From the IMG/VR virus record IMGVR_UViG_3300030095_005132, positions 30,233 through 94,232 of that record: a stretch of 64,000 nt of DNA. One strand, given 5' to 3'. The notes beneath the pieces were generated by a model. That model was not told the DNA's origin and searched no databases. It was given only the letters and a program-made list of their open reading frames with translations. Shown piece after piece: positions 19,144 through 64,000 of this stretch; the stretch's first letter is position 1, and each line of letters starts with the position of its first letter. The position numbers were made by a program, and so were the translations under genes. The stretch is from a virus. Taxonomy: Duplodnaviria; Caudoviricetes.

Positions 19144-19172
19144 TAATGATATCAAACAATAGGAAATTCTTA

Positions 19173-33500: not shown

Positions 33501-34204
33501 ATCAAGATGTTCAAAAAGCATTTAAAATTGAAAAACCATTTGTAACTAAATTACCAAAGGTAAAAGATTTTAGTAAAAAGCAAAGTTACTTTTTAGGAAA
33601 ACTAAAAAAATTACAGAGTGAATATAATTTAAAAGGAAATAATACACTATCTGAATATCATCAAGCTTATTGGATGGAGTATATTTATAATGGCGCAAAA
33701 CAAACAGATTATAAACATCCTGATAATAGGGTGTTAATGAAGCTAACAAAAAGATGGGCTTTCTTTGATAAGTCTTATAAGATACCACAGATTAAAAAAG
33801 ATTTAAAGGACTATCCAAAGTTTTTAAGTTGGGTATTAAGTACAGATAAAATGGATCACGCTAGACTACAAAAACAACATATCAGAGATTGGGAAGTTCT
33901 TTTCTTTGAGTTAGGAGCTGAGATACTCTCTAATCTTAGTGATTTTATAGCTGCTAATCCATCTAAAGCTGCTCAACAAATTCGTAAGGATTTAAAAACA
34001 GCAATTAACAAAGTTAAAAAATCTAAAGATCCAAAAGTGTTAAATACTTTAAAAACTCAATTGGATAGATTGAATGCTATCGGTGGATTGAAATCAGTAG
34101 TTCCATCAGAAGGAATTACTTTTGTTTATAAAGGTAAGTTATATAAATATACTGGAGCATTTGCACCAGCAAATCAAATCTTAGGTATGTTAAAATTCGT
34201 ATAG
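30563..34204 (+). CDS. multidomain protein: P-loop kinase + small modules + HxGH nucleotidyltransferase + RNA-ligase-like domain
   Basis: AIFLAGGPGSGKS with IIDGTG (zeta-toxin/PNK-like kinase); GGRFQPFHSGH...VSGT (cytidylyltransferase-like); TEKTDGQN, SLEVI, SEGITF, LYKYTG (ligase motifs I, III, IV, V). Confidence 0.8.
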   Translation: MDKLTEFLTKPFLNEGARDPGIFKAIFLAGGPGSGKSFVAQKLFGIPEKINVSKTGLKMVNSDNELEVLLKKYFGTTDIDLMPDELFADLTGVDKSGKPVDYDTSGLRDFAKSLTKQRLKLYTDGKLGVIIDGTGHKYAKIKDKRKKLMDMGYDTYMVFVNTSLDVALDRNEKRARVVPEKIVRKSWQDVQNNMGAFQGLFGGSNFQIISNNEHLSEKQIHKRFKMLVSKGIDKFLKKPIKNKIAKAWLRREKKHQKVFKDPGQSRFFESINVPVDIGDTVLMGRFKNKKVVVKSIDYNEKGDLLINGRTALKFRVMKKDEAARVPRKKGQHRGSKSHSDLYTDENPKGTIKGLKFATVKDAKASVSKIKGSGKKHAHKIQAAVAMEQRAREMGKSSEAAVYRAYINKMKKKTKAKNEEFGAPAGTLPSPSRKMVKKMKKKGNTSVPYGSGYKKVNEQKEIKKTIGVFGGRFQPFHSGHLATYKWLTSQVDEAYITTSNIKQPPRHPMNFKEKVRHMVKMGIPANRIIMEKSPYVAKNLLKKFNKDTTAVVYAFGQKDAGRLKAGKGKYFQDYKKSKGDIKGYEENGYFITAPQFGSVSGTQMRKLLGDPKLDDSERVKAFKKVFGYYDKGVYSMMTNKFKKLFETYTLSKELIENFLLESSATPAGNLDDGPSTYYSDYKVYKKTSKEWLDSIYKNAGWEIVNYILDDRAQNGIEKNYHSVPLTYLDHGQANGSTRAVSKYKTWIENVVKPLGWKVVNWMGTDAAIDNIIGSLFAAGADGDSYDVTSLYEKINLDREVDLLLEGGAYGHLNHPFDNKNLTFSDFKTLIINTLQGKLDNEGTVTEKTDGQNIMVSWKNGKLLAARNKGHIKNHGANALNIDGVKSMFAGRGDIEKAFVYAMRDLQNAVGKLSDAQKTKIFDEGKKFMSLEVIYPKTANVIPYDKALLQFHGTIEYDSAGSPIGEDRGSARMLAGMIKQINQDVQKAFKIEKPFVTKLPKVKDFSKKQSYFLGKLKKLQSEYNLKGNNTLSEYHQAYWMEYIYNGAKQTDYKHPDNRVLMKLTKRWAFFDKSYKIPQIKKDLKDYPKFLSWVLSTDKMDHARLQKQHIRDWEVLFFELGAEILSNLSDFIAANPSKAAQQIRKDLKTAINKVKKSKDPKVLNTLKTQLDRLNAIGGLKSVVPSEGITFVYKGKLYKYTGAFAPANQILGMLKFV

Positions 34205-48906: not shown

Positions 48907-50462
48907 TGGCTCGTAAAAAACCAATACCTCGTTCTGCGAGAAAAGAAATTAATCGTGGAACATTGAGGTCTAGAGGATCGGATGAAACAAAGAACCTATC
49001 AGTTGGGTTAATGGATATTGATGGCGCTATTATGTTTTACTTTAATAATGTCATAAAGCCTGTCGTACAAGAAAATGATGAAAGTGTAAAAGTTCCTATT
49101 ATGTATTCTAATCCTGAAAGATGGAATACGATACAGAAGAATGGTTATCTGATAGATAATAAAAAGCAGCTTATAACACCTCTGATAGTCTTTAAAAGAA
49201 CTTCTATAGAAAAAGATAGTGATTTGGGTGTGGATAAATTAGATCCAAAAGACCCAAAACTATTTTACACTTTTCAAAAAAAATATTCTAAAGAAAATAG
49301 ATACGATAATTTTGCTGTACAACAAGGTTTAAATAAAACTAAAGAATTATATACAGTGGCTGTTCCTGATTATGTCACATTACAGTATGAATTTATTATT
49401 TGGACATCATATACAGAACAAATGAATAAGATAATTGAAAAAATTATTTTTAGTGAAGGTTCTTATTGGGGAGAGGATGGTAAGTTTAAATTCAGAACAT
49501 CTATAGATAATTATACAGATGCGAGCGAATTTTCTGTAAATTCTGAAAGAATTATAAAAACAAATTTTACAGTAACACTAAAGGGTTATTTAATACCTGA
49601 AGAATTTAATAATGTAGTTACAACACAAAAACATTTAACTCCAAAAAGAATATTAGTCGGTGATGATGTTAGTGTAAATCTAACGGACTTGGTTGGGGAT
49701 AAAGGTACAAGCGATGTCAAAATTTCAGTTAGTAATGTTGCAGCTGGTGGAGGTGGTTCATTAGAAAATCCTTTTAATATTGTAAGTGGACTTGGTGTTA
49801 CGGTAGATGGTGCTGGTCAGTTCGATGGTAGCGCTCAACAAACATTTACTTTTAATATAGGTCAGGATGTAGGAACCGACCAAACAGTTCAATTTGCTAA
49901 TATTAGTTCTTCAAATGCTCTTCATATAGGTCCTACTTCATTTGAAATATCTCAAAGGGATGATGGTAAGGCACAAGTAAATACAGACTGGGTTGTTTTG
50001 GGAGATATAATAGCACAAAATTTCATAGTATCTTCATCCACAACTCACATGACAACTTCTTTTAGCGAAGGTAATACAGCATTTGGTGATACTATTGACG
50101 ATACTCATATATTTTCAGGTTCAGTAAATATTACAGGTTCATTAACATTGAATGGTAGTGTAATCGCAGCTGCTAGTGACTCTGATTTGTATTTAAGAAA
50201 ACAATTTGTAAAGAAGGCTTCTTCTATAACTGTTCCGTCTACTGCTAGCTTTACAGCGGTAACTGCCTCATCACCTCCTGGTATTTTAAATACAACTGAA
50301 AACGATTTTGTATTTTTTATAAATGGTCAATATATGGAACACGATGCTTTAACCATACAACAAGCAGGTTCTAATCTTTTGTTAATAGTTGACACAGATA
50401 GTATAGGTTATGATTTAGAGGCTGATGATGAGATTATTGCTTCTGGTAAGTTCGATTCTTAA
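48906..50462 (+). CDS. tail terminator/completion protein (gp15-like) with C-terminal fibre-like extension
   Basis: KVPIMYSNPERW, PDYVTLQYEFIIWT..EQMNKIIE, FTVTLKGY in the N-half; Ser/Gly-rich C-half. Confidence 0.65.
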   Translation: MARKKPIPRSARKEINRGTLRSRGSDETKNLSVGLMDIDGAIMFYFNNVIKPVVQENDESVKVPIMYSNPERWNTIQKNGYLIDNKKQLITPLIVFKRTSIEKDSDLGVDKLDPKDPKLFYTFQKKYSKENRYDNFAVQQGLNKTKELYTVAVPDYVTLQYEFIIWTSYTEQMNKIIEKIIFSEGSYWGEDGKFKFRTSIDNYTDASEFSVNSERIIKTNFTVTLKGYLIPEEFNNVVTTQKHLTPKRILVGDDVSVNLTDLVGDKGTSDVKISVSNVAAGGGGSLENPFNIVSGLGVTVDGAGQFDGSAQQTFTFNIGQDVGTDQTVQFANISSSNALHIGPTSFEISQRDDGKAQVNTDWVVLGDIIAQNFIVSSSTTHMTTSFSEGNTAFGDTIDDTHIFSGSVNITGSLTLNGSVIAAASDSDLYLRKQFVKKASSITVPSTASFTAVTASSPPGILNTTENDFVFFINGQYMEHDALTIQQAGSNLLLIVDTDSIGYDLEADDEIIASGKFDS

Positions 50463-50502
50463 AAATAAATCCCAACTTCCACCTTTCTTTTACTATTTCT
50501 TG

Positions 50503-50511
50503 ATATTTATA
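50503..50511 (+). promoter_or_regulatory. candidate late promoter ATATTTATA
   Basis: Recurrent intergenic motif. Confidence 0.5.
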
Positions 50512-50514
50512 AGT

Positions 50515-50790
50515 ATGAGAAAACGTCATTGGAAAGATAGAAAAAATAGAAAATGTCCTGATTGTAGTAAAGTAATTTACTATTCCAGAAAAGATTCCTT
50601 TGATAGAGCAGTTGGTAATAATACAGTATGTAAATCTTGTGCACAGACGGATAGAAAATTAGCTTTGGCTACGATTGAAAAGATGAAACAACCTAAGACT
50701 GTAGAACATAAAAAGAAAATTTCCAAATCTATGAAGGTGAGATGGGAAACTTTGAAGAGAGAGAAGAAGCATGGCTTTATTAGACAGTAA
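50515..50790 (+). CDS. Zn-finger + NUMOD3-like small DNA-binding protein
   Basis: CPDC..CKSC followed by PKTVEHKKKISKS; likely start is ATG 50515. Confidence 0.6.
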   Translation: MRKRHWKDRKNRKCPDCSKVIYYSRKDSFDRAVGNNTVCKSCAQTDRKLALATIEKMKQPKTVEHKKKISKSMKVRWETLKREKKHGFIRQ

Positions 50791-51238
50791 ACAATTAAAT
50801 CCTAGACTCACAGGTTCATTTACCCTATCGGGTAGCTTAACCACGGATTCAGTTTCAACCGGCTCATTTGGTAGACTGGATGTATCGGGCAATTCAAGTA
50901 TTCTTGGTGACTTGACATTGGGCGGAAATATACAAATAGGAGATTCTTCTGGCGACTCTATAACCATAACTGCTGATTTAACTTCTAATCTAACTCCAAA
51001 TACAGATAGTACATTTGATTTAGGAACAACTTCTAAAAATTGGAGATTTGGTTACATAGAACAAATAGTCGGCGAAACAGTAACCACTACAGGTAATGTA
51101 AGTGGTTCTGTTACATCTACAGGCTCATTTGGAACATTAGAAACCGCTGGTGATATTAATGCTAGTGGAAGAATTTTTGAAAGTGGTACATCGGTAATAG
51201 ACCACGCAACAGCTATGGCTATAGTCTTTGGAGGATAA
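50771..51238 (+). CDS. short fibre-like structural protein
   Basis: Two STGSFG repeats; LTPNTDSTFDLG..W motif; ends ATAMAIVFGG. Confidence 0.65.
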   Translation: MALLDSKQLNPRLTGSFTLSGSLTTDSVSTGSFGRLDVSGNSSILGDLTLGGNIQIGDSSGDSITITADLTSNLTPNTDSTFDLGTTSKNWRFGYIEQIVGETVTTTGNVSGSVTSTGSFGTLETAGDINASGRIFESGTSVIDHATAMAIVFGG

Positions 51239-51240
51239 TA

Positions 51241-51567
51241 ATGGCTAATACATTTAAAAGTGCAGCTAGTGGTTCGACAACAACAATTCAAACATTGTAT
51301 ACTTGTCCAGCTGCCACTTCGGGAGTAGTACACGCAATTTATTTAAGTAATGTTGATGGTACAAATGATGCTACTATTGATGTATCTATTAGTGGTAGTG
51401 CTAATTTTGATGATAGAAGATACATATTAAAAACAGTGGATGTACCAGCAGACTCGACAGTAGTACTTGAGAAACCAATCAATTTGGGTGCTGGAGATAA
51501 ACTAGAAACCAAAGCTTCTGCTGATGGTGATATAGATGTCTTTGCAAGTATTTTAGAGATAACCTAA
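51241..51567 (+). CDS. small structural protein
   Basis: MANTFK..LYTCP..LSNVDG..VPADST..LGAGDKL beta-sandwich pattern; GGAGG SD. Confidence 0.65.
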   Translation: MANTFKSAASGSTTTIQTLYTCPAATSGVVHAIYLSNVDGTNDATIDVSISGSANFDDRRYILKTVDVPADSTVVLEKPINLGAGDKLETKASADGDIDVFASILEIT

Positions 51568-51568
51568 A

Positions 51569-52876
51569 ATGTCTAATTTAAAATATATTGGTAAGAATAT
51601 TTTAAATCATACCCTTGAGTCAAAAAGAGGTAATATAAGTGGTTCTGCTACTTCAACCGGTTCATTTGGACTAGTAGAAATAAGTGGAACAGACATAAAT
51701 CCATCCGGAGTTTCTCGTGACCAAGTTTTAAAATTTAATGGAACTAACTTTGTTCCTGCAGCTTTTGATGATACTTTTGTATTTACCATAGCAGATTTTG
51801 ATATGAACGACTCAACATCACCACAACTAATTGGTTCAGGTTCTTGGAAAGCAGCTGATGAACTTCAATTTACTGCGTCATATAATAATGGTCCGCCTGA
51901 TGGTTTTGAGGGAAGTTCTGCAGGAGCTCCAAAAATTCAAGGTTATGTAAACAGTTCGATAAGTAGTTCATATGATATGTTTCCATTAAGCTCTAGTTTT
52001 ACAATGGGAACAAATCCTATGGATATAACTTTTCCATTAACTACCGGTCATGATATAAGATTTAGATTGTTCGCTTCAGCTGGAAGCGATACTGATAATG
52101 AGTACACAGATCAAAGGATATATTTTAGAAATCAATTTGTTTATGGTGATATAAGCAAGAACAATGGATTCAATCAGGCAGATATAAGAACATTAGCAGC
52201 TGCCAATACAGTTACTACTAATGATACAACAAGAACACTATCGGTATCGGTTGGTGGTTCTAATTATTTAGCATTTGCACATAGAACTGGTGATACTAAT
52301 GTAGCACAAGTAAGGGCTGGTAGTGGAACTAATATATTAACAGTTGCTATGGATAGAACTGATGTTACTGCATTAACACCATTAAAAGAAACAGTAAGTT
52401 ATTTAAATACTGCTGGGTTTACAGAAAACTTTTTTGTGTATGCTAGTGCTATAGCTAATGTAGATGCACACTCAACAACATTTACCACAGTAACATCTAC
52501 ACAAAAGAAAAATTATATTATTTGGGGATTCGATGCACAAGCAGATAGTTATGATGAAAGTTTCTTAGAAACTTCAGGTGATTGGGATTCCTACAATGCG
52601 AACTCTTCGCTCGATGACGGAACAATTACAGGACAAACACTAAGTGTTGGTTCATTTACATCTAAATATGTTATAATAGCTTTTCCAGATAGATACGGAG
52701 ATAATGATTCAGAATTTGTATTTAAGGATAATGGTACAGGTTTACCATTTGATGTAACAAAACAAAGTGATGTAACAGTAACAAACGCGGTTGGATTTCA
52801 AGAAACATATCATGTTTGGAGATCGACTAATTTACTAACAATGTCAAACTTAACAGTTTTGATATCTACGGTATAG
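51569..52876 (+). CDS. structural/fibre-associated protein
   Basis: N-terminal ISGSATSTGSFG and QVLKFNGTNFVP fibre-like motifs; two internally similar C-terminal domains (N-x-x-GF-x-E-x-[FY]). Confidence 0.6.
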   Translation: MSNLKYIGKNILNHTLESKRGNISGSATSTGSFGLVEISGTDINPSGVSRDQVLKFNGTNFVPAAFDDTFVFTIADFDMNDSTSPQLIGSGSWKAADELQFTASYNNGPPDGFEGSSAGAPKIQGYVNSSISSSYDMFPLSSSFTMGTNPMDITFPLTTGHDIRFRLFASAGSDTDNEYTDQRIYFRNQFVYGDISKNNGFNQADIRTLAAANTVTTNDTTRTLSVSVGGSNYLAFAHRTGDTNVAQVRAGSGTNILTVAMDRTDVTALTPLKETVSYLNTAGFTENFFVYASAIANVDAHSTTFTTVTSTQKKNYIIWGFDAQADSYDESFLETSGDWDSYNANSSLDDGTITGQTLSVGSFTSKYVIIAFPDRYGDNDSEFVFKDNGTGLPFDVTKQSDVTVTNAVGFQETYHVWRSTNLLTMSNLTVLISTV

Positions 52877-52885
52877 GAAAATAAA

Positions 52886-55800
52886 ATGGCAGTAAAAGTA
52901 ACAGGACAATTTGAACCCGCTGGTGACTTTTCGATAGTAGATGGCTCAGATGTATCAGGAAATATTACTGGTAGTAATGTAAGTGCGAGTGGTACTGGTA
53001 CATTTAATACTATAGAAGCTAGTAATGTAGGAACTACTTTGGGAACTATGATTAGTGGTTCTACACCATTTAATGCTTCCGATGTAAGTGGTTCTTGGAG
53101 AGGAGAATTTTCCTCAAGTAATATGACAGTTGTTGGTGGTGGTATAAGTGGCTCTGCTGAATCAACAGGTTCTTTTGGTAGGATTGAATCCTCAACCGTA
53201 AATATTGGTTCGGCTGATATAACCGGTAACCTAACAGTAGCTGGTAACTATACAGTAAATGGAACAACCACATTCATATCAAGTTCTCAGTTAGATATCG
53301 GTGATAACATAATTCAAGTAAATTCTGTAAATCCCCTTAGATATGGTGGTATTCATGTAAAGGATGTAACTGCTGAAGAAACTGGTTCTTTAGTATGGGA
53401 TAGCACGAATGATTATTGGTTAGCTGGTCAATCAGGTTCGGAATATAGAATACCATTACAAGATTCAACATCCGATTTAACGGACAATAAAACTATAATC
53501 GCTGGTTCTAGCGGTAGATTAGAATCAGGTGATATTACGGATACTGGTGATAGCATCAGTATGACTTTGCCAGTAACCGCTTCTTCTAATTTAGAAGTTG
53601 CTGGAAACATAAGTGGTTCAGCAACCTCAACTGGTTCGTTTGGACATATTACAACTCCTGCTGGAATAAATGCTGTAGGACCTTTTACATTTCAGACAAC
53701 AGCAGCTGCCAACGATACAATATTTAGAACTGCGGGAACTTCTGGTTACCCACTTACATTAAGAAATAGTAATAATTCAGCAAGAATGTATTTTCAAACC
53801 AATGCTGGTGTTACTAATATTATAATGGATGGTAACAGTAAAAGTAATTTACTGAAATTATCAGCTGATGGTCTTACTGAAACAAGAGGTCAAGTTGGAA
53901 GTGCTCATGCTGATGGTAATTTAGAATTATATAGTAACAATGGTCTTAATAATTTAATTCTAAGTGCTTCAATGACTACAATAAGTGGTTCTGGAGATAC
54001 AACATTAGATGTTAAAGGTAATATTCTTAGTGAAGGAAACATAAGTGGTTCGGTTGCTTCAACTGGTTCGTTTGGTGTATTAGAATTGGTTTCAACCGAT
54101 GGGATGGCTAAATTTGATTTCACAAAAGGTACTAATAATTTTTCAATTGGATACGGAGGCACAGGACAGACTCTCACAACTGGAGCTGTTGGTAATGTAT
54201 TTCTTGGATATGGAGTCGGCAGTCAAGTAACGACAGGAGACCAGAATGTAGGACTTGGATATCAAGTTATTACTGGTGGAAATGCAACAGGAAATACTGC
54301 TGTTGGATATAGAGCGTTAAAAGCCATGAATTCAGGAATCGGAAATGTTGCGATTGGAAGACTAGCAGGAGATGCAGTACAAACAGGTAATTATAACATC
54401 GCAATAGGTCAAGGTACAGGTTTTACTGGCACAGGTGCAACAAACCAAATTGGAATCGGATATGATGTAACTGTACCAGGAGATAATCAAACTGTAATTG
54501 GTGCATCACCTCAAACTCATGTAATATTTGGTGGAAGTAACACATTGATAAGTGGTTCGGCTGCTTCAACTGGTTCGTTTGGTGATGGTAGATTTGCCTC
54601 TAAGGTAGGTATCGGTTTAGGTATTGCTACTGCATTATCAACTCCTCATAGTTATCTTGATGTCAGAGGTAATAATGTTACTCCGAGTAATGGTAATGGT
54701 AGTTATCACACAATGCAACTTATTGACACAACAGCGATGGCTGAAGGAGTTGGTGGTGGTATTGGATTTGGTGGAAAGTTTGTTGGAAACACAGATACTC
54801 TTTTTGGTGAAATCAGAGGACTCAAAGAAAATGGAACTTCAAATAATTATGCTGGAGCTCTAACATTTCAAACACGTGCTCATGGAGCTAATCTGATTGA
54901 ACAAGTTCGTATTGATAGTTCAGGTAATTTGGAGGCAGTTAGAGGAAACATAAGTGGCTCATCAACCTCAACCGGTTCGTTTGGAAGGGTTGAATCAAAT
55001 ACATTTGATGTTACAACTTTAACAAGCACAACAGTTACATCAACAAATCTTAATGTAACAGGTGAAATAACCGGATCTTCATTGGATATTAGTGGAAATA
55101 TGACTGGTAGTGCTAATTTAGAAGTAGCTGGAAACATAAGTGGTTCAGCAACCTCAACCGGTTCGTTTGGTGCTGTTTATGTGGATAATGCGATTGGATT
55201 GGGTATAACTAATCCAGGCTCTTATGTGGCAGATAATACACCCTTAGTTCTTGGAACTGGTGCTAATAACTCAACAGGCACTGGAGTAGCGATGATATCC
55301 GCTACAAATGGATATGGTAATCTGTATTTTGGAGACGGAACTGGAGTTAATACATACAGAGGTGCAATTCAATATTTTCATACTAGTGATAGTATGAAAA
55401 TATGGACAAGTGGAAATTTTAACTCTCCATCTCTTCTTTTAGATAATTCAAAAAATATAGAAATAGGTGGAAACATAAGTGGTTCATCAACCTCAACCGG
55501 TTCGTTTGGACATTTAGAACTTGCAAATAGAGATACGGATGCTAGTTTTGAATTTGGAAGAGCTCATATAGGATTTGTAGGATATTCCGATATGGCTGGA
55601 TTCAGTCATGTTGATAATGATTCTACCTCAAATTTCGCTTTAGCTCAAAGTGCCGCTGGTAAAACAATTGTACAAGCTAAAAGTGGTCAACCTATTGCCT
55701 TTAAAATAGGTGGTTCTGATAAGGTTCAAATAAATTCAAGCGGTGATCTAGGTATAGGTATAGAAACAGCATTACATAAACTTCATGTTGTCGGAGATGG

Positions 55801-58800
55801 ATTTTTTACTGGTAATGTAAGTGGTTCAGCAACCTCAACAGGTTCGTTTGGTTATTTAGAGATTGCAGATAGTGGTGGTTCACCAACAATTCATTTAAAT
55901 GAACCTGCCGGTGGTGGTGGAGATAGTGCAGTCAGAATGACAGAGGATGGTGGATTCAGAGGTGGTTTTATAAAGTATGACGGTGGCAATAATCTTCTAA
56001 AAATTGGTACACATGCAAACAACAACAGAACAGTTAGTGATGATATTACGGCAATAGAAATTACACGAAATGATGGGTATCCATATTTTAAAACAGCATA
56101 TGCATACCTCAATCAATACTTAGCTCACGAAGGAGATGACGATACCTACCTAAGATACCAAACAAATCAAATAGACTTATCTGCAGGTGGTAATATATTT
56201 GAAATAAATACTACATCTTTGAGTGGTTCATCAACCTCAACAGGTTCGTTTGCTAAAATCACAGCAGCTGATAGGATTGAGGTAAACGGGTCTGGTACAG
56301 GACAAGTTTATATTGGGACTACTTCTGGTCAAGTTGCATTACATGCTGCAAATGATAGTATCATTCAGGCAAATCATTTTCAATCTACACAAAATAGTAA
56401 CTCAGCAGTATTTTTATATGATGATAATGGTGTAGCTACGAGAATTCATGGTCAGAATCATGTAAGATTTACATTTGGATCTGCAGCATCTGGTTATGAC
56501 GACAGAACATTTTTTAAAGTAGCTAGTAGAAATTCCAATACTTATGCAGATACTTTATTGTCAGGAAGTTTACATATAACAGGATCTGGTGGAGACTTAG
56601 GAAGTGTAGTTTTAACAGGAAACGTAAGTGGCTCATCAACTTCAACCGGTTCATTCGGAACACTTCGTATTGATGGTGGTGTTATTGATTTTGATAATGC
56701 TAATAATACATTTATAGGAAAAAATTCTAAAAGTAGTGTAATAGATGGTGCAGATAGTAATACAGTTGTGGGAACAAATGCCGGCTCCGCTTTAACCAGC
56801 GGTGATGATAACACCCTAATCGGCTACAATGCGGGTAATGATTTAACCTCGGGTCATCAGAATACCTTGATAGGCTATACTGCAGGTGATAACATAACAA
56901 CTCAGCAGGGTAATGTCCTTATAGGAAAAAATACTGGTGGTACTGGTCAACAACTTAGTATATTAATAGGAAATGATACTGGTAGATTAATAGCTTCGGG
57001 AAATGGGACTGTTGGTATTGGACATAATACGCTATATTCTTTAAGCACTGGACAATTTAATACTGTAGTTGGGTATGACTCTATGCGTTTTGAAGTTGAT
57101 GGAGATCGTTCAACTGCTTTTGGGTATCAAACATTAAGGAGTCAAACAGGAACAGACGGAACTGTTGGGACAACTGCTCTTGGATATAAAGCTGGATATA
57201 ATGCAACAAGTGGTATACACAACATATTTGTAGGAGCTGACACGAACCCATCATCCGGTTCTAGTAATAATGAAATTGTAATTGGTTATGGTGTAACAGG
57301 ACTAGGAGACAATCAAACTGTTATTGGTAATTCATCACAAACCCATGTTGTATTCGGTGGAGATGCTCTAATAAGTGGTTCAGCATCCTCAACTGGTTCG
57401 TTTGGTGATGGTAGATTTGTCGGTAAGTTAGGTATCGGTGAAGAAACTGCACCTGATGAATTATTACACCTAAAACAAACAGGTAATGATTTTACAACAA
57501 TACAATTAGAAAGTACAAATGGTGGTACTGGTGCTGGTTCTCAGATTGATATGAATTTCAATGGTGCTCACTTTTACTTTATTAATCATGGTACTGGTAG
57601 AACTGCAACAAGATACGGAACAACTGTAGCCGGATTTGGAGAAATATTAGCACAAGATTCTAACTATGGTTTATTAATTGGAACTGGAACTAAGAACAAA
57701 CCGATAATTTTTGGTACTAATAATGCTGAAGTTATGAGAATTGAAGATGGAAAAGTAAGTGGTTCATCAACCTCAACTGGTTCGTTTGGACATTTAGAAC
57801 TTGCAAATAGAGACACAGATGCTAGTTTTGAATTTGGAAGAGCTCATATAGGTTTCATAGGATTTTCGGACATGGCTGGATTCAGTCATGTTGACCACAA
57901 TGGTACAGGTACTTTTGCATTAGCTCAATCAAGTGCTGGTAAAACAATTGTTCAAGCCGCTAGTGGTCAACCAATTGCTTTTAAAATAGGCGGTACTGAT
58001 AAAGTTCAAATAAATTCAAGTGGTGATTTGGGTATAGGTATAGAAACTGCATTACATAAACTTCATGTTGTTGGAGATGGTTTTTTTACTGGTAATGTAA
58101 GTGGTTCATCAACCTCAACCGGTTCTTTTGGTAGATTAGCAGTAGGAACTGCTACAATACAAATACCTTCAAATGGATTCATAACAATGGGTTCGTTGGA
58201 AGGTATGGTTATGAACACCCGATTTGGAAATAATGCAGGACAAAACTTACAAGCTGGTGGGACACAGAATGTAATCGTAGGAGAAGATGCCGGAGCTGCC
58301 CTAACAACGGGTGATACTAATGTGGCTGTAGGTTCAGAAGCACTAAAGGCTGCTACTGGAGATAGTAATAATGTTGCTATTGGTAGGAGGGCGCTTCATG
58401 ATTTAAATGCTACAAATGCGAGAAATGTTGCTGTGGGAACAGGAGCCGGCGATGGTATAACATCAGGAACTGAAAATGTTCTTTTAGGACATAGCACTAA
58501 TGCATCTGCTGTTGGTGGAGATAATCAGATAGCAATAGGTTCAGGTGTAACTGGAACAGGAGACAATCAAACTGTTATTGGTAATTCATCACAAACCCAT
58601 GTTGTATTCGGTGGAGATGCCCTAATAAGTGGTTCAGCAAAATCAACCGGCTCATTCGGTAGATTAGATGTAAGTTCATTTTCTTCTGCTACTGCTACGA
58701 TAATTAGTGGCTCAACCAACCCAACAAGCGTAAGTGGCTCTTGGAGAGGAGAACTTTCTTCGAGTACTATGGCTGTTGTGGGTGGTGGTGTAAGTGGCTC

Positions 58801-60367
58801 ATCAATATCAACTGGCTCATTTGGTTCGGTAATGCAAAATGGAAAACACTTTCCACAAACCAATGCACCTGGTGAAAATATTGCTTTTGGAACAGATGCT
58901 GGTAGTGCTTTTGTTGGTGGAAATGTCAATAAAATAAATGTTGCGATTGGTCTAAGTGCGGGTAGTGCTATGGCTGATTATGGTGGAAATGTTTTTATAG
59001 GTAAAAATGCGGCTAAATTAAGAACTCGTGGTGATGATAATGTTGCTATAGGAACAAGTGCCGGTGGAACAGATGGTGATGATTTCGGTGATAAGAATGT
59101 TTTTATCGGATTGAGTACCGGACTTGCTATAAACAGCACAAATTCAGATGCGAATGTTTTTATTGGTAGCCTTGCAGGAACTGCTGGTCAACAGAGTATA
59201 GCCAATGTTCTTATTGGTTCTGATGCAGGAAAGACACTTACTAATAGTAGCCGTAATGTTGCAATCGGTGCTTTTGCTGGAACAGGATTTGGTGTAACAA
59301 ACACCACAACTGAAAATAGTATCTATATAGGACAATATGCTAGAACTTCTGTTACAAATGCTAATAATGAAATAGTAATAGGTTCAGAAGCAGTTGGTCA
59401 TGGAACGGATACAATAACCTTTGGTGATAATCAAATAACAGATGTTTACTTTGCTTCAGGTTCTTCTACAGGCGCTACATTTCATGGTGTAAAAGATTTT
59501 AGTGGAAACATAAGCGGCTCATCAACCTCAACCGGTTCTTTTGGTAGGGTAGAAGCAACAACTGTATCTGCTAGTCATTATGTTGGTCAAATAGGTTCTC
59601 GTTATGTACACTCTCAAACCTCAGATTCTACAACTTGGGCAATTACCCATAATATAGGACATAAGTATCCTGTTGTTACTGTTTATGATACAGACGACCA
59701 AATAATGTTACCTGAAACAGGTACTGCTACCGATTCTGATACATTTACTTTAACTTTTAATGAGGCTATACAAGGAACAGCGATTTTATCTGTTGGTGGA
59801 GTTGGTACAAATGCTGGTAATAATTACATACACACCCAATCAGAAACATCTACAAATTGGAGAGTTACACATAGTTTAAGCCAACAATATCCTAACATTA
59901 CGGTATTTGATGAAAATGATGAGGTTATAATACCAGAGTCGATTACTGCTACAAGCGATAATAATGCAGACATAGTTTTTTCATCCGACCAAATCGGTTA
60001 TGCTAACTTTTCCATAGGTAGTGGTATACCGAATATCAGCAGTGAAAATTCAGGTAAGTTTTTAAAGGTAAGGCATGATGGAGAGGGTGTTGAGTGGGTG
60101 CCAACCACAGCTAATGTGTCAGGTTCAATGTCGGTATCAGGAAGTATATTACCCGATGCTGATAATCATCATGATTTGGGTTCAGCTGAAAAAAGATGGG
60201 CTAATTTATTTACCGGTGATATAGAACTATCCAACGAAGGCTCGGAAGGTAATGAGGTTGATGGAACAACAGGTTCTTGGACGATACAGGAAGGTGAGGA
60301 TGACCTATATTTATTAAACAGAAAGAATGGAAAAAAATATAAATTTAAATTACAGGAGATAGAGTAA
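52886..60367 (+). CDS. giant modular fibre/adhesin protein (2493 aa)
   Basis: 16 SGSxxSTGSF junctions, YadA-head-like N[TV]A[VI]G repeats, duplicated H-x-Q..W-x-[IV]TH domains, C-terminal GDIELSNEG..WTIQEGEDDLYL..GKKYKF cap. Confidence 0.8.
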   Translation: MAVKVTGQFEPAGDFSIVDGSDVSGNITGSNVSASGTGTFNTIEASNVGTTLGTMISGSTPFNASDVSGSWRGEFSSSNMTVVGGGISGSAESTGSFGRIESSTVNIGSADITGNLTVAGNYTVNGTTTFISSSQLDIGDNIIQVNSVNPLRYGGIHVKDVTAEETGSLVWDSTNDYWLAGQSGSEYRIPLQDSTSDLTDNKTIIAGSSGRLESGDITDTGDSISMTLPVTASSNLEVAGNISGSATSTGSFGHITTPAGINAVGPFTFQTTAAANDTIFRTAGTSGYPLTLRNSNNSARMYFQTNAGVTNIIMDGNSKSNLLKLSADGLTETRGQVGSAHADGNLELYSNNGLNNLILSASMTTISGSGDTTLDVKGNILSEGNISGSVASTGSFGVLELVSTDGMAKFDFTKGTNNFSIGYGGTGQTLTTGAVGNVFLGYGVGSQVTTGDQNVGLGYQVITGGNATGNTAVGYRALKAMNSGIGNVAIGRLAGDAVQTGNYNIAIGQGTGFTGTGATNQIGIGYDVTVPGDNQTVIGASPQTHVIFGGSNTLISGSAASTGSFGDGRFASKVGIGLGIATALSTPHSYLDVRGNNVTPSNGNGSYHTMQLIDTTAMAEGVGGGIGFGGKFVGNTDTLFGEIRGLKENGTSNNYAGALTFQTRAHGANLIEQVRIDSSGNLEAVRGNISGSSTSTGSFGRVESNTFDVTTLTSTTVTSTNLNVTGEITGSSLDISGNMTGSANLEVAGNISGSATSTGSFGAVYVDNAIGLGITNPGSYVADNTPLVLGTGANNSTGTGVAMISATNGYGNLYFGDGTGVNTYRGAIQYFHTSDSMKIWTSGNFNSPSLLLDNSKNIEIGGNISGSSTSTGSFGHLELANRDTDASFEFGRAHIGFVGYSDMAGFSHVDNDSTSNFALAQSAAGKTIVQAKSGQPIAFKIGGSDKVQINSSGDLGIGIETALHKLHVVGDGFFTGNVSGSATSTGSFGYLEIADSGGSPTIHLNEPAGGGGDSAVRMTEDGGFRGGFIKYDGGNNLLKIGTHANNNRTVSDDITAIEITRNDGYPYFKTAYAYLNQYLAHEGDDDTYLRYQTNQIDLSAGGNIFEINTTSLSGSSTSTGSFAKITAADRIEVNGSGTGQVYIGTTSGQVALHAANDSIIQANHFQSTQNSNSAVFLYDDNGVATRIHGQNHVRFTFGSAASGYDDRTFFKVASRNSNTYADTLLSGSLHITGSGGDLGSVVLTGNVSGSSTSTGSFGTLRIDGGVIDFDNANNTFIGKNSKSSVIDGADSNTVVGTNAGSALTSGDDNTLIGYNAGNDLTSGHQNTLIGYTAGDNITTQQGNVLIGKNTGGTGQQLSILIGNDTGRLIASGNGTVGIGHNTLYSLSTGQFNTVVGYDSMRFEVDGDRSTAFGYQTLRSQTGTDGTVGTTALGYKAGYNATSGIHNIFVGADTNPSSGSSNNEIVIGYGVTGLGDNQTVIGNSSQTHVVFGGDALISGSASSTGSFGDGRFVGKLGIGEETAPDELLHLKQTGNDFTTIQLESTNGGTGAGSQIDMNFNGAHFYFINHGTGRTATRYGTTVAGFGEILAQDSNYGLLIGTGTKNKPIIFGTNNAEVMRIEDGKVSGSSTSTGSFGHLELANRDTDASFEFGRAHIGFIGFSDMAGFSHVDHNGTGTFALAQSSAGKTIVQAASGQPIAFKIGGTDKVQINSSGDLGIGIETALHKLHVVGDGFFTGNVSGSSTSTGSFGRLAVGTATIQIPSNGFITMGSLEGMVMNTRFGNNAGQNLQAGGTQNVIVGEDAGAALTTGDTNVAVGSEALKAATGDSNNVAIGRRALHDLNATNARNVAVGTGAGDGITSGTENVLLGHSTNASAVGGDNQIAIGSGVTGTGDNQTVIGNSSQTHVVFGGDALISGSAKSTGSFGRLDVSSFSSATATIISGSTNPTSVSGSWRGELSSSTMAVVGGGVSGSSISTGSFGSVMQNGKHFPQTNAPGENIAFGTDAGSAFVGGNVNKINVAIGLSAGSAMADYGGNVFIGKNAAKLRTRGDDNVAIGTSAGGTDGDDFGDKNVFIGLSTGLAINSTNSDANVFIGSLAGTAGQQSIANVLIGSDAGKTLTNSSRNVAIGAFAGTGFGVTNTTTENSIYIGQYARTSVTNANNEIVIGSEAVGHGTDTITFGDNQITDVYFASGSSTGATFHGVKDFSGNISGSSTSTGSFGRVEATTVSASHYVGQIGSRYVHSQTSDSTTWAITHNIGHKYPVVTVYDTDDQIMLPETGTATDSDTFTLTFNEAIQGTAILSVGGVGTNAGNNYIHTQSETSTNWRVTHSLSQQYPNITVFDENDEVIIPESITATSDNNADIVFSSDQIGYANFSIGSGIPNISSENSGKFLKVRHDGEGVEWVPTTANVSGSMSVSGSILPDADNHHDLGSAEKRWANLFTGDIELSNEGSEGNEVDGTTGSWTIQEGEDDLYLLNRKNGKKYKFKLQEIE

Positions 60368-63300
60368 ATGGCTATACATACCGGCGATATTTTCGCAGAA
60401 CAATATACAGTATCATCCTCTGTAACTAATATAGTTATAGCATCAACTTCAGGTTCTATGGCATTTGGTGATAGTTCTGATGACACACATCAGTTTACTG
60501 GTTCGTTAATGGTATCTGCTTCTGGTCAGATAGGTATTGGCACAACAAATCCTGACGGAGAACTTCATGTTCATGCAGCAAGTGCGGGTTCTGTAACTGC
60601 ACCAGGTGAAGGAAATAATTTAATAATTGAAGATTCGGCTACTCCAGGAATGTCATTTCTTTTTCCAAACAATAGTAAAGGAAGTATTTACTTTGGAACT
60701 CCAAGTGACAATGACCAAATGTCAATTATTGGTGATACAAATAACAACCGCTTTGATTTCGCTGCTCGAAATGCCTCCGATGTTATTAGATTTAGACCTG
60801 CAGGTGGGGTTTTAAATTTAACATTAAAAGGTGCAGCTGGTTCTGAAATGGCTCAATTTGAAGGTGATGTAAGTGGCTCATCAACCTCAACTGGTTCGTT
60901 TGGTAGAGTTAATGTAAATGGTAGTGGCACAAGAATGGTTTTTGATACAAAAACAACAGATGGAACTATTGATTTTCTGGCTATTGATGATGGTTCAACC
61001 ATTTCTAAAATGGAATTATTTTCAGCTGATGTTGGTGGAAGTGGTGGAAGTGGTATCAACATGATGACTGATGGTAACTTTGCTGTATCTAAACTTAATA
61101 ACACTCCCTTTTTCAAAATTACAGAAAATAGTGGTATTGTAGAATTTCCTGCTGCTAATCAAAAAATAAGTGGCTCATCAACCTCAACTGGTTCGTTTGG
61201 TGCTGGTTATATTGATAATAAATTGGGCATTGGACAAACAAGTCCAGAAGCTAAATTGCATATTACACAAACATCTTCTGATTATGCTTTGCACATAGAA
61301 CATAGCAGTAATACAACAAATCACTATAACGGAATTTTTATATCTGGTTATGATGAAAATAATACATCTTATCCTTTGTTTATCAAGGGAAATTCTATAG
61401 ACTTAGATGAAAGCACTGGTAATGTAAAATTTGTAGTTCGTGCAGATGGCAAAGTCGGCATCGGCACCACAGTTCCTTCACAAAAATTAGAAATAAGTGC
61501 TGGAAATATAATGATTTCTGGTAGTGGTGGAGCTGGTGTTATCTTTAAAGGAACTGGTGATGGTTCAAATAAAAATGCCCTATACTTTAAAAATGCCTCA
61601 AATACTGAAAAGTTTAGAATAATACATGATCCAAGTGCTAATGGAACTGATGATTTACAATTTAAAGCAAATGCAAATAGTGTAACTGTAATGACAATGT
61701 TACAGAATGGAAATGTCGGCATCGGCACCACAAGTCCTGGAGAAGCTTTAGAAATAAATAAAAGTGGAGCAAACCTAAAGGTGGTATCTGATAATAATGT
61801 TTATCTATCTCTTGATACAACACAAACAAATGGTGACGAATGGCATATATTTAATGCCAATAGTGGTGCGACATCTACATTACAATTTAAAAATGTAGAC
61901 CAATCAAAAGTTGTGATGTTGATGGATGAAACAGGTAAAGTCGGCATCGGCACCACAAGTCCTTCTACTGCTTTAGAGGTAGTTACTAATGATGGTATCA
62001 ATGTAATAACCGATGGGAGTAGTGATACACCAGCAAGATTAAACTTATGGTCAAAAGATACTTCAATAGCAGCTGGTGATACAATAGCAGCTATATATGC
62101 TTTAGGAACTGATAGTACTTCCACTGCAAACACAGGTTCAAAAATAGAATTTAATGCCGATGCAGTTTGGGATGCTGGTAGTGCTAATTATCAAGCAACA
62201 AGAATTGATTTCTTTGCTCAAAACAATAGTGGAACAAATACTTTAACTGCTCCAGTATTACAAGTAGCTCATAATAAAATAAGTGGTTCATCAACCTCAA
62301 CTGGTTCGTTTGCAAAATTAATACTAGCAGAAAACTTACATATAGCAGATGGTAAATTTGTTAATGTTGGAAATGATAATGATTTTACCATTCAACACAG
62401 TTCTCATACATTTCTTACAAATAATACTGGTAACCTATATTATAGACAAAAAGCCTCAGGTGCAAGTCATCTTTTCCAACAGACAAGTGGTAACACAACT
62501 GTTGTTGAAATTTCAGATGGTGGTGGTTTCTTTGTACAAGGTGGTTCATCACCATTAATACAAACCACTGGTAATATAGTATCTACAGGTGCAAATAAAG
62601 TCATAAGTGGCTCATCAACCTCAACCGGTTCGTTTGGTGCTTTACATACTGCTGGGCGAGTTGGCATAGGAACAACGACTCAAAATTCTAACTTAACAAT
62701 TCAAACAACTGCTGGTTCAGTAGATACATCAGCTGCTACTGGTACATTACAATTTGGTTCTGTAAGCTCTACTCTAACTCCTTCTATTACTGGAAGGCAA
62801 ACTGCTGGTACTCACGGTCTCTTTTTAATGGCTATGGGATTAGATGGAACTACAACCGGTGATATGATTTTTAATACAAGGGAAAATAATAACTCTACCT
62901 TTGCATCAACTGATCATGCGGGATTTAAGTTTCAACATTTTTCTACTGATTTAGTTACTATTTTAAGAAACGGAAAGGTCGGCATCGGCACCACAGGTCC
63001 TGACCACAATCTTCACGTAAGTAGTTCTGGTACTGTTGATATAGTTGCAGAATCTCAAAATTTCGGAATAAAATTATCAGCTGACAATACCAACAGTAGA
63101 TCTATAATAATACTAGATAGAGATAGTACAGATGGTGTTGGTGCTGGTAGTGATTATGCTTATATTAGATACGACTCCGCTGGTTTAGATATAGGTACTG
63201 GTGAAAATTTACCAATAGTATTTGAGCCAAACGGTGCTGAAAGAGTAAGAATTACTACGGCTGGTATAATTTTAAATAGTTCGTCAGCTCATGTAAGTGG

Positions 63301-64000
63301 TTCTCAATACTCAACTGGTTCGTTTGGTGTAGGTCATATTGCACATAAAATTGGAGTCGGTACACAATCACCACAACTTCAATCTGGTATAAACGGAAGT
63401 GGTATTGATATTTACAATGCAAATTTTCCACATTTATTTTTTCACAATTCTACAACAGGCACCTCAAATTCAGACGGAACAAGAATTTTATTAGAAGGCA
63501 ATACATTATTTTTTCAAAGTTTTGAAGCAGCTGGTGGATTTAGGTTTTTAAATAATGACAGTAACACCGTTATGACAATAACGGGTTCAAATGTCGGCAT
63601 TGGAACAGAAAGTCCTAGTGTTGCTCTCCATGTTAAAGGCGATGGTCATAGAGTTCAAGTTTCAAGTGCAGACTATGATTTAGTGAAAATAGGAGCTTAT
63701 GGTGATTCTGGTGGAGACTTAGATAATGGATTTTTAAATATATTAAATGATGGTTCTGAAAAAATCAGACTCTTAGCAGATGGAACTTCATATTTAAATG
63801 GTGGCAATGTCGGCATCGGAGTTACAAGTCCAGTTGGAAAACTTGATATTGCTGGTACACAAACATTACACTTAACACATACAACTACTGATGATACAAA
63901 TAAAAATCCTGTAATTACATCATATCAATACGATTCTGGTACGGAGACAGAAGGTTTTATGATGATGCAAGCATTTAGTAATTCGTCTACAAATAGAATT
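60368..64000 (+). CDS. 3'-truncated modular fibre protein (at least 1211 codons; absent from the ORF track)
   Basis: ATG 60368 directly after the upstream TAA; repeats at 60872 to 63296 and the last codons lie in the same frame; GNVGIGTTSP and SGSSTSTGSFG repeats. Confidence 0.85.
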   Translation, partial: MAIHTGDIFAEQYTVSSSVTNIVIASTSGSMAFGDSSDDTHQFTGSLMVSASGQIGIGTTNPDGELHVHAASAGSVTAPGEGNNLIIEDSATPGMSFLFPNNSKGSIYFGTPSDNDQMSIIGDTNNNRFDFAARNASDVIRFRPAGGVLNLTLKGAAGSEMAQFEGDVSGSSTSTGSFGRVNVNGSGTRMVFDTKTTDGTIDFLAIDDGSTISKMELFSADVGGSGGSGINMMTDGNFAVSKLNNTPFFKITENSGIVEFPAANQKISGSSTSTGSFGAGYIDNKLGIGQTSPEAKLHITQTSSDYALHIEHSSNTTNHYNGIFISGYDENNTSYPLFIKGNSIDLDESTGNVKFVVRADGKVGIGTTVPSQKLEISAGNIMISGSGGAGVIFKGTGDGSNKNALYFKNASNTEKFRIIHDPSANGTDDLQFKANANSVTVMTMLQNGNVGIGTTSPGEALEINKSGANLKVVSDNNVYLSLDTTQTNGDEWHIFNANSGATSTLQFKNVDQSKVVMLMDETGKVGIGTTSPSTALEVVTNDGINVITDGSSDTPARLNLWSKDTSIAAGDTIAAIYALGTDSTSTANTGSKIEFNADAVWDAGSANYQATRIDFFAQNNSGTNTLTAPVLQVAHNKISGSSTSTGSFAKLILAENLHIADGKFVNVGNDNDFTIQHSSHTFLTNNTGNLYYRQKASGASHLFQQTSGNTTVVEISDGGGFFVQGGSSPLIQTTGNIVSTGANKVISGSSTSTGSFGALHTAGRVGIGTTTQNSNLTIQTTAGSVDTSAATGTLQFGSVSSTLTPSITGRQTAGTHGLFLMAMGLDGTTTGDMIFNTRENNNSTFASTDHAGFKFQHFSTDLVTILRNGKVGIGTTGPDHNLHVSSSGTVDIVAESQNFGIKLSADNTNSRSIIILDRDSTDGVGAGSDYAYIRYDSAGLDIGTGENLPIVFEPNGAERVRITTAGIILNSSSAHVSGSQYSTGSFGVGHIAHKIGVGTQSPQLQSGINGSGIDIYNANFPHLFFHNSTTGTSNSDGTRILLEGNTLFFQSFEAAGGFRFLNNDSNTVMTITGSNVGIGTESPSVALHVKGDGHRVQVSSADYDLVKIGAYGDSGGDLDNGFLNILNDGSEKIRLLADGTSYLNGGNVGIGVTSPVGKLDIAGTQTLHLTHTTTDDTNKNPVITSYQYDSGTETEGFMMMQAFSNSSTNRI
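61454..63820 (+). repeat. dispersed 18-bp GC-rich repeat GTCGGCATCGGCACCACA (VGIGTT)
   Basis: Exact copies at 61454, 61715, 61940, 62978; partial copies at 63593 and 63809. Confidence 0.9.

Follow-up and report, generated by a model that had tools for sequence, protein, structure and literature searches.

A shared coding linker as a probable recombination joint between tail-fibre cassettes of an uncultured marine virus

The host range of marine phages is set largely by their fibres, and how fibres diversify in uncultured phages has mostly been inferred. The last 64 kb of the 94,232-bp linear virus record IMGVR_UViG_3300030095_005132, rated 51% complete, raises this question directly. Near the end of this stretch (64,000 nucleotides (nt), hereafter the window), four putative tail-fibre genes are divided into modules by one short peptide motif, SGSxxSTGSF[GA], and we asked whether the DNA encoding this linker is a joint at which modules are exchanged. 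A first-pass annotation, made from the letters of the window alone, had proposed such a joint and had likened it to an integron or shufflon. In our best explanation, to which we assign a probability of roughly 0.7, the four genes encode the tail fibres of an uncultured, T4-like marine myovirus, the fibre is a chain of separately folding modules with one linker, and general homologous or microhomology recombination at this structurally constrained linker shuffles the cassettes.

We searched all six frames for S-G-S-x-x-S-T-G-S-F-[GA]. The search returned 23 strict copies, all on the plus strand and in frame within four open reading frames (ORFs), with one degenerate copy besides. This agrees with the roughly 24 junctions in four genes, all direct repeats, that had been counted at first pass; the six-frame scan found none inverted. 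The extended linker consensus was G-N-[IV]-S-G-S-[SA]-T-S-T-G-S-F-G-[RHK]-[LVI]-E. At the DNA level, GGTTCGTTT matched 15 times, every match lying inside a motif copy, against 0.19 expected (15 was reached in 0 of 100 shuffles), and TCAACCTCAAC matched 10 times against 0.03 expected. No motif copy was found elsewhere in the 94-kb record or on the opposite strand. The modules between motifs had been described as mostly unrelated and given a size range. The first part was roughly right, with the exceptions that modules m7 and m12 of fibre gene 3 (modules m0 to m16) were 90% identical in amino acids (aa), that m3, m10, m13 and m15 formed a loose family, and that m4, m11 and several modules of fibre gene 4 formed another; the size range is corrected to 45-412 aa.

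The conservation of the linker reached synonymous sites, as the annotation had also stated. Ser codon 9 of the motif was TCG in 15 of the 23 copies. Elsewhere TCG is uncommon, at 4.4% of Ser codons over 32 non-fibre ORFs and 6.7% over the non-motif parts of the fibre genes. Thr codon 5 was ACC in 13 of the 16 copies with Thr (about 11% in the background), and Ser codon 6 was TCA in 22 of 23 (about 25%). We also examined 80 relatives that were chosen through the neighbouring gp15-like protein (46-84% identity), which makes the sample blind to the motif codons. Their 93 unique motif copies carried TCG in 39 cases (background 3.7%) and ACC in 31 of 64 Thr codons (background 8.3%). The rare-codon pattern is a property of the whole phage family, and motif codons did not match background usage in the window or in these relatives. 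Third-position GC content peaked at motif codon positions -2, 1, 4, 6 and 8 only (counted from 0), with flanks at about 0.1, and the neighbouring motif codons were fixed on the common TCA, GGT and TTT. Such position-specific peaks speak against codon quality as the cause, and likewise against GC-biased conversion acting broadly or an origin in foreign GC-rich DNA.

Pairs of motif copies differed at 2.36 of 8 synonymous sites within a genome and at 2.79 between genomes, whereas codon usage predicts 4.0. This synonymous difference of 29-35% is comparable with the 19-43% between orthologous cassettes of 69-91% aa identity, even though the cassettes joined by the motif are unrelated. Since the motif copies are as alike at synonymous sites as orthologous cassettes are, the joints look younger or more constrained than the cassettes. 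The argument of the annotation that protein-level selection alone would not fix codons was, in our judgement, right.

Two other sources of the codon pattern were considered and rejected. Codon-pair context would not account for TCG, which made up 12% in GGT-TCN-TTx contexts outside the motif (n = 563) and 42-65% in the motif. GC-biased conversion or a foreign GC-rich origin was set aside because third-position GC was raised at five codons only, with flanks at about 0.1, and because the motif value in relatives (0.14) was near background. The share of TCG showed a weak trend with distance from the gp15-like gene (25%, 33%, 57%, 38%). A search of the literature on synonymous sites and gene conversion in tail fibres found nothing relevant, and the string STGSFG was not found in a literature text search.

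We compared the array with about 200 related viral and metagenome loci, all of them metagenome assemblies. For the viral loci, 28 of 73 end points of blastn high-scoring segment pairs (HSPs) lay no more than 15 nt from a motif (p = 1.5e-9), and for the metagenome loci 70 of 119 did (p = 5e-36; 59 of 88 in the long array alone), with 11% expected; as HSPs tend to run through any conserved patch, this statistic alone overstates the case, and the test of neighbouring modules is the stronger evidence. Single modules were shared at 80-96% nucleotide identity within otherwise unalignable fibre genes. The m15 block (58791-59545) recurred in 11 loci at 81-93% identity, and its neighbours there belonged to the families of the window's neighbours in 0 of 10 testable cases upstream and 0 of 10 downstream. 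In an earlier adjacency test, 14 of 15 testable neighbours were unrelated, one was weakly similar and none was homologous; this test left out modules shorter than 30 aa, counted L052 and L044 (one contig) twice and missed conserved cases in the small genes.

Individual cassettes showed where similarity begins and ends. Cassette m4 was 96% identical in locus L142, whose conserved neighbour region was only 78% identical. In a three-way alignment, the identity with L142 started after codon 5 of the left motif and stopped inside the right motif, and the flanks were unalignable. Cassette m10 was found at 90% identity in L134 and L135, and an identical 33-mer preceded its homologue in L135 despite differing upstream flanks. 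The whole 33-mer sometimes moves with the downstream cassette (m10, window and L135) and sometimes does not (m15 versus L133).

A joining of separate genes was found in L051, the closest relative (84% identity in the gp15-like protein). In this locus, the N-terminal module of fibre gene 1 (g155_m0, 91% aa identity) is joined by one motif straight to m1 of the 2493-aa gene (86%). In the window the two modules lie 2 kb apart in separate genes, and the switch in L051 falls inside the 33 nt. The same fusion was present, independently, in L146, and g155_m0 recurred fused to other cassettes in L051/L144, L146 and L138. Module order was permuted in L031, where m15 stands before m3 with other neighbours, and in L135. 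Adjacency was kept in the small genes only: the adapter and body of the 435-aa gene stayed together in 7 of 12 loci, with five other module families in the other 5, and g155_m0-g155_m1 in 1 of 5. In these alignments homology blocks start and stop in the motif, the neighbours of array cassettes that are shared are never conserved, and relatives are not colinear. The block ends, the unconserved neighbours and the L051 fusion bear out the proposal that the repeat is a joint for in-frame exchange of modules within a gene, between genes and between genomes, and the outcome set at first pass as refuting it, background-like codon usage with colinear relatives, was not observed.

Single-linkage clustering of 561 modules gave 386 families, 304 of which were singletons, so that the cassette pool appears to be very large. 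The exact 23-nt core of the motif occurred in 42 stretches in IMG/VR. Among 185,579 species genomes it occurred in a single contig, L131, of a metagenome-assembled genome labelled Candidatus Pelagibacter sp. In the L131 locus (4209-7042), TCG is present in every one of the 6 motif copies. The contig probably belongs to a phage and was binned into the Candidatus Pelagibacter genome, and it could be a hint of the host.

Evidence of duplication and deletion was also found. The DNA similarity between m7 and m12 begins at the motif and ends just past the next motif. In sequencing run X5, which comes from another study than the probable source runs, a near-identical 941-nt contig places 58097 right after 57754 and thereby skips 342 nt, exactly m12. 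Its left part matches 57379-57754 and its right part 58097-58642, and the join is flanked by 394 and 546 nt. The two m12 joints of the window have no more than 23 identical bases in common, so an assembly graph of this genotype at k=31 would not make the X5 join. The other Logan read joints were not used, as their sides of only 21-42 nt were the motif matching itself and motif k-mers are common to many genomes. A lack of cover over parts of the stretch in runs X5-X7 does not mean that those parts are absent.

A second conserved peptide, GxVGIGTT, marks further joints in fibre gene 4. All four window copies listed in Table 1 share GTCGGCATCGGCACCACA, and looser copies were present at 60524, 62654 and 63803. 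In relatives (26 copies), this peptide also carried rare codons: GTC in 18 of 26 (background 6.9%), ATC in 16 of 26 (16%) and GGC in 18 of 26 (5.5%). As two unrelated conserved patches both act as joints, general homology-dependent exchange fits better than one dedicated site.

We modelled residues 680-990 of the 2493-aa protein in three copies. The model scored 0.86, compared with 0.00 for the best of three controls, a mark that was reached by 21 of 30 proteins solved as one-chain pairs and by 0 of 23 solved as single chains in a calibration on two copies rather than three, and to which likeness to solved trimeric fibres may contribute. The predicted local distance difference test value (pLDDT) of the partner was 91, and runs agreed in at least 95% of contacts; an AlphaFold2 monomer of the same residues had a mean pLDDT of 41.6. 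The two central motif copies (chain residues 73-83 and 186-196) lay in the modelled interface, which offers a structural reason for the invariance of the peptide. The fibre proteins matched no Pfam family at E<=0.01, and no solved structure matched the 2493-aa protein at E<=0.01. The PHROG matches of fibre gene 3 were a tail spike (phrog_4636) and a virion structural protein (phrog_6002), and those of fibre gene 4 were tail fibres (phrog_18345, phrog_9942).

These observations are consistent with the following course of events. A universal linker, G-N-[IV]-S-G-S-x-T-S-T-G-S-F-G, would join the modules and, as in the trimer model, would sit on the three-fold interface. Since the linker peptide is almost invariant, the 33-45 nt encoding it are the only patches common to otherwise unrelated cassettes, and such patches would exist both within one genome and among co-infecting phages of a large family. 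Ordinary phage homologous or short-homology recombination may cross over in these patches, and we infer that the crossover uses the DNA identity of the joint. As each crossover in the linker is in frame and at a module boundary, recombinants would have a good chance of folding. In this way cassettes could be duplicated, deleted or permuted, genes could be fused and single cassettes could be replaced horizontally, and the result would be diversified receptor-binding fibres. Expressed fibre genes, both from the same phage and from others, would apparently be the donors; silent motif copies were not found in the 94-kb record. From the sub-saturated synonymous sites we infer that the joints have repeatedly been copied or converted and hence are of more recent origin than the cassettes on either side. 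Shared cassettes, at 80-96% identity, have diverged to an extent that points to exchange over evolutionary time and not to programmed switching.

The recombination genes of the family were surveyed in five records, this one and four large relatives, which are 49-79% complete. PF00589 (Phage_integrase), which matched 14 of 14 control genomes, was found in 0 of 5, as were PF00239 (Resolvase) and PF00078 (RVT_1, reverse transcriptase). The absence of a recombinase or reverse transcriptase from the window, noted at first pass, extends to the whole 94-kb record. A RecA-family (UvsX-like) recombinase was present in the two largest relatives. No inverted motif copy was found in the window or in any relative locus. 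The only inverted match in the region, 16 nt at 60253-60268 with 88% complementarity to the first half of the motif, is probably due to chance. No hairpin potential was detected when four copies with their flanks were folded as single-stranded DNA (z-scores +0.58, -0.97, +1.25 and +1.34).

Besides the behaviour of HSP ends described above, several points weigh against recombination at the linker as the source of the mosaic. The motif copies vary: on average 27.3 of the 33 nt agree, and the longest stretch without a mismatch in a pair of copies has a median length of 12 nt and seldom exceeds 30, which is short for efficient homologous exchange. Homogenisation of copies within a genome is slight, amounting to the gap between 2.36 and 2.79 differences. 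ACC and TCG were linked in the window (p = 0.018) and unlinked among relatives (p = 0.32), so that a picture of one founder haplotype copied around is incomplete, and the rare TCG and ACC persist despite AT mutation pressure without a demonstrated reason. This record, at 51% completeness, yielded no RecA-type gene, the k=31 contigs of Logan end at the motif, and the mosaicism is known from metagenome assemblies alone, with recombination read from sequence patterns. Selection for foldable proteins alone could also place the surviving break points at linkers. This last possibility can be extended into a full alternative, which we regard as unlikely: random or illegitimate recombination would strike anywhere, the survivors would be those joined at the linker, and the codons would be kept by translation, for accuracy or for pausing at the trimer-interface peptide. 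The nearly invariant peptide in the modelled interface and the short exact homology between copies fit this alternative, as does the lack of linkage between ACC and TCG in relatives, which independent site-wise selection predicts. The commonest codon is over-represented at most positions (GGT 83-89% versus 57%, TTT 94% versus 75%), as accuracy selection would give, and several enriched rare codons end in C (ACC and GGC; GTC and ATC in the second motif). C-ending codons of this kind are Watson-Crick matches to their tRNAs. However, the codon choice is position-specific, with one Gly encoded by GGT in 89% of copies and another by GGC in 35% of window copies; Phe is TTT and not TTC, Ser codon 1 is AGT and not AGC, and the strongest anomaly, TCG, does not end in C. 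Crossovers also map inside the 33 nt and not just nearby, and whole 33-mers travel with cassettes. As for pausing, one rare codon does not amount to a pause cluster, and at the time of a pause on the linker the preceding 30-40 residues would still be in the ribosome tunnel.

The conserved nucleotides might instead be the recognition site of a phage recombinase or homing-type nuclease. That these nucleotides are conserved beyond codon usage across the whole family, with rare codons maintained against AT pressure, would suit a dedicated system of this type, and a recombinase could have been missed in records of 49-79% completeness. A zinc-ribbon ORF (50515-50790), conserved in L051, adjoins the array, and its match to phrog_314 'homing endonuclease' was weak and non-significant (E = 0.014). 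Its other matches were virus-only unnamed Atlas clusters, and neither a significant or named family nor a nuclease domain was found in it. We consider a dedicated system very unlikely, and the integron- or shufflon-like part of the first-pass proposal was not supported: the five incomplete records yielded neither a tyrosine nor a serine recombinase nor a reverse transcriptase, the direct copies offer no substrate for inversion, hairpin potential is lacking, and copies vary at 6 of 33 nt on average. In addition, the unrelated GxVGIGTT peptide behaves alike, and shared cassettes that differ by 4-20% make exchange rare on the scale of generations. A related reading, which strikes us as doubtful, is that the linker DNA is a selected recombination signal, an intragenic in-frame counterpart of attC or of the linkers of T4-type phages discussed below. 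The rare codons (TCG and ACC in the main motif; GTC, ATC and GGC in the second) might then be kept for mutual recombinogenicity, through evolvability selection or biased conversion, or be recognised by a phage factor, for which the zinc-ribbon protein directly upstream of the array would be a conceivable candidate. If this were true, the fibre locus would be a dedicated cassette-exchange device and not a passive by-product of a conserved peptide. An artefact, in which assemblers jump between co-occurring phages at the 33-nt repeat, is the least credible account and in our view most improbable. All loci are metagenome contigs, the window contig itself ends inside the last fibre gene, and k=31 contigs break at the motif, whose k-mers are many times deeper than unique sequence. 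Against this, most copy pairs share fewer than 31 identical bases, and k-mers longer than 31 are usual in such metagenome assemblies. Unique pieces of the window region were even in depth (13-23) in run X1, and shared cassettes differing by 4-20% from the window point to different lineages and not to mis-joined reads of one. The recurrence of non-window arrangements in separate records also argues against assembly chimeras, namely the g155-m1 fusion (L051, L146), m10-x-m15 (L134, L135) and m15-x-m7-like (L135, L141).

Exchange at a linker by general recombination has a precedent in T-even phages, in which the His boxes of gp37 and the glycine-rich motifs (GRMs) of gp38 are reported to separate hypervariable adhesin segments, with chimeric exchanges within or near the motifs (Tetart 1996, 1998 in Trojet et al. 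2011, PMC3157838). The T-even case, as that review presents it, and the present one have in common short conserved peptide motifs between variable fibre segments, break points in or next to the motifs and, apparently, general phage recombination that works without a dedicated recombinase. The motif SGSxxSTGSFG is not a His box (GxHxH) or a gp38 GRM, so it is alike in its working and not a member of the same sequence family. Whereas the T-even exchanges, in the same account, concern a few tip loops, about 23 whole modules along four genes, shaft included, are involved here. Module order is permuted, the linker serves 386 module families in the sampled loci, and rare codons are conserved in the joint. 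The T-even case is here compared with an uncultured phage known from metagenome sequence alone.

A second precedent is the promoter early stem-loop (PeSL) elements of T4-type phages, conserved linkers that flank cassettes which homologous recombination deletes, inserts and replaces (Arbiol et al. 2010, PMC2839356). Their authors drew a comparison to integrons and stated that T4 recombination needs only <50 bp of homology and that mini-circles are formed (PMC2839356). As described there, a PeSL is an intergenic early promoter with a stem-loop, about 100 bp long, that moves whole ORFs. The fibre linker, in contrast, is coding, about 33-45 nt long and free of a stem-loop, and it would move protein modules in frame inside genes. 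The pattern of linkers and mosaic joints here would fit the PeSL system, with exchange read from the DNA, and a RecA-type recombinase is encoded in two of the five records. The mosaic adhesive trimer (MAT) fibres of Bdellovibrio are described as trimeric, intertwined and mosaic with diversified tips (Caulton et al. 2024, PMC10769870). Through its G-x-V-G-I-G-T repeat region, fibre gene 4 weakly matched two PDB entries, 8ond (Bd2133, E = 4e-4) and 8ojn (E = 5e-4), and this similarity is marginal. MAT fibres belong to a bacterial surface and not to a virion, and the cited account, as far as it was available to us, describes no universal linker or DNA-level joint.

In-frame cassette swaps at conserved junctions also occur in CdiA (VENN) and Rhs (PxxxxDPxGL) toxins with orphan cassettes, in Neisseria pilE/pilS and in Borrelia vlsE with its 17-bp direct repeats. 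These systems work by general recombination or gene conversion from silent or orphan donors within one genome, whereas the 94-kb record contained no silent copies. Shufflons (Rci), the invertible fibre segments of Gin, Cin and Min, and integrons provide alternative adhesin C-termini or cassette capture at short repeated sites. Shufflons and Gin need inverted sites, integrons need hairpin-forming attC, and all of them need a site-specific recombinase. In the five incomplete records surveyed, neither an Rci/Gin-type recombinase nor an IntI tyrosine recombinase was found, and inverted sites and, in the four copies folded, attC hairpins were likewise lacking. Unlike in a diversity-generating retroelement, for which no reverse transcriptase was found in the five records, the variation consists of whole-module replacement and not of adenine-specific substitution.

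The positions of the fibre genes, motifs and joints are collected in Table 1. All long ORFs of the window are on the plus strand. A T4 gp15-like tail sheath stabiliser (PF16724, Pfam) lies directly upstream of the fibre genes, and a major head protein (phrog_138, PHROG) also lies upstream. By head protein, the closest cultured phage was Flavobacterium phage vB_FspM_immuto (51%), with Microcystis phage Mel-JY01 at 50% and Rhodothermus phage RM378 at 38%. A megablast search of 50,697 deposited phage records found no near-identical DNA to 50700-64000 in cultured phages, and in a tblastn search of the same records the fibre proteins matched in short pieces and in nothing longer. No tRNA genes were found in the window. 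The structural region upstream also contains very large ORFs that lack the linker motif, at 19146-29327 (3393 aa), 4419-10793 (2124 aa), 30563-34204 (1213 aa) and 15973-18930 (985 aa). The C-terminal 100 or so residues of the 2493-aa protein (60000-60367, residues about 2374-2493) matched a Prochlorococcus podovirus protein and Synechococcus myophage 'virion structural proteins' (among them those of S-CAM4 and ACG-2014) at 45-63% identity. Judged by these matches, the tip module appears to be common to very different marine phage groups.

Some further features of the locus were observed. The four motif-bearing genes (starting at 50771, 51569, 52886 and 60368) share one absolute reading frame, and the 108-aa gene, over which blastn blocks (51206-51567) were found in many relative loci, is in another. 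The ATG of fibre gene 4 (60368) immediately follows the stop of fibre gene 3 (60367). The common frame and the abutting stop and ATG may be left over from in-frame rearrangements of an array that was once continuous, or they may be a coincidence (about 1 in 27). Minus-strand ORFs of 85-120 aa (for example 54880-55137, 56542-56814, 58567-58929 and 60853-61116) each read ...PNEPVEVDEP..., which is the motif on the opposite strand; they are most likely a by-product of the repeat in a stop-free frame and not genes. As the record ends inside the last fibre gene at position 64000, more cassettes and further fibre genes probably lie beyond the end of the window.

Table 1. Fibre genes, selected cassettes, linker motifs, GxVGIGTT joints and the adjoining zinc-ribbon ORF (window positions; the codon column refers to Ser codon 9 of the motif)
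Feature	Position	Strand	Codon	Remark
Small zinc-ribbon ORF	50425-50790, probable start 50515			between gp15-like gene and fibre gene 1; CxxC...CxxC
Fibre gene 1	50771..51238	+		155 aa; one strict motif between N-terminal module g155_m0 and a short C-terminal module; matches phrog_36881 (function unknown)
108-aa gene between fibre genes	51241..51567	+		motif-free, other frame; phrog_1276; conserved in relatives
Fibre gene 2	51569..52876	+		435 aa; 23-aa N-terminal adapter, motif, 401-aa C-terminal module
Fibre gene 3	52886..60367	+		2493 aa; 17 modules (m0-m16), 16 motif copies
Fibre gene 4	60368..64000	+		at least 1211 aa, cut by contig end; 6 modules, 5 motif copies
Cassette m7	55478..55819	+		114 aa including motif; paralogue of m12
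Cassette m12	57758..58099	+		114 aa; duplicate of m7 in different context
Degenerate motif DSVSTGSFG	50846..50872	+		from sequence reading and loose scan
SGSVTSTGSFG	51101..51133	+	TCA	crossover zone of L051/L146 gene fusion
SGSATSTGSFG	51638..51670	+	TCA	end point of many homology blocks
SGSAESTGSFG	53147..53179	+	TCT	second partner of L051 fusion
SGSATSTGSFG	53612..53644	+	TCG	colinearity with L051, L143, L145, L147 ends here
SGSVASTGSFG	54044..54076	+	TCG	start of m3 block common to L031
SGSAASTGSFG	54551..54583	+	TCG	left joint of m4
SGSSTSTGSFG	54953..54985	+	TCG	right joint of m4
SGSATSTGSFG	55139..55171	+	TCG	trimer-model interface, chain residues 73-83
SGSSTSTGSFG	55478..55510	+	TCG	left joint of m7; trimer-model interface, residues 186-196
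SGSATSTGSFG	55820..55852	+	TCG	right joint of m7
SGSSTSTGSFA	56222..56254	+	TCG	
SGSSTSTGSFG	56627..56659	+	TCA	TTC variant; left joint of m10
SGSASSTGSFG	57374..57406	+	TCG	right joint of m10
SGSSTSTGSFG	57758..57790	+	TCG	left joint of m12
SGSSTSTGSFG	58100..58132	+	TCT	right joint of m12
SGSAKSTGSFG	58628..58660	+	TCA	
SGSSISTGSFG	58793..58825	+	TCA	left joint of m15
SGSSTSTGSFG	59513..59545	+	TCT	right joint of m15 and left joint of C-terminal module m16
SGSSTSTGSFG	60872..60904	+	TCG	
SGSSTSTGSFG	61169..61201	+	TCG	33-mer identical to copy at 60872
SGSSTSTGSFA	62282..62314	+	TCG	
SGSSTSTGSFG	62606..62638	+	TCG	L132 block 62603-62989 starts here
SGSQYSTGSFG	63296..63328	+	TCG	
G-K-V-G-I-G-T-T (GTCGGCATCGGCACCACA)	61448..61474	+		left edge of block common to L033 (96%) and L014 (89%)
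G-N-V-G-I-G-T-T, same 18-nt core	61709..61735	+		right edge of L033/L014 block
G-K-V-G-I-G-T-T, same 18-nt core	61934..61960	+		L033 block 61932-62271 starts here
G-K-V-G-I-G-T-T, same 18-nt core	62972..62998	+		L132 block ends at 62989

In T-even phages, recombination at conserved fibre-gene motifs is an established principle, and the advance here lies in scale, regularity and codon conservation and not in a new mechanism. What is new is the motif itself, a coding in-frame linker, about 23 cassettes per fibre set, a permuted order and rare codons in the joint. The linker would make it possible to catalogue receptor-binding modules straight from metagenomes, to date and count exchange events, and to test directly whether selection for recombination acts on the DNA identity of a protein linker. 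In laboratory phage-host pairs, chimeric fibres could also be built with it as a natural in-frame assembly standard. For the biology of these viruses, the finding would mean that one 11-residue linker divides the fibres of a large, abundant marine myovirus family into several hundred interchangeable cassettes.

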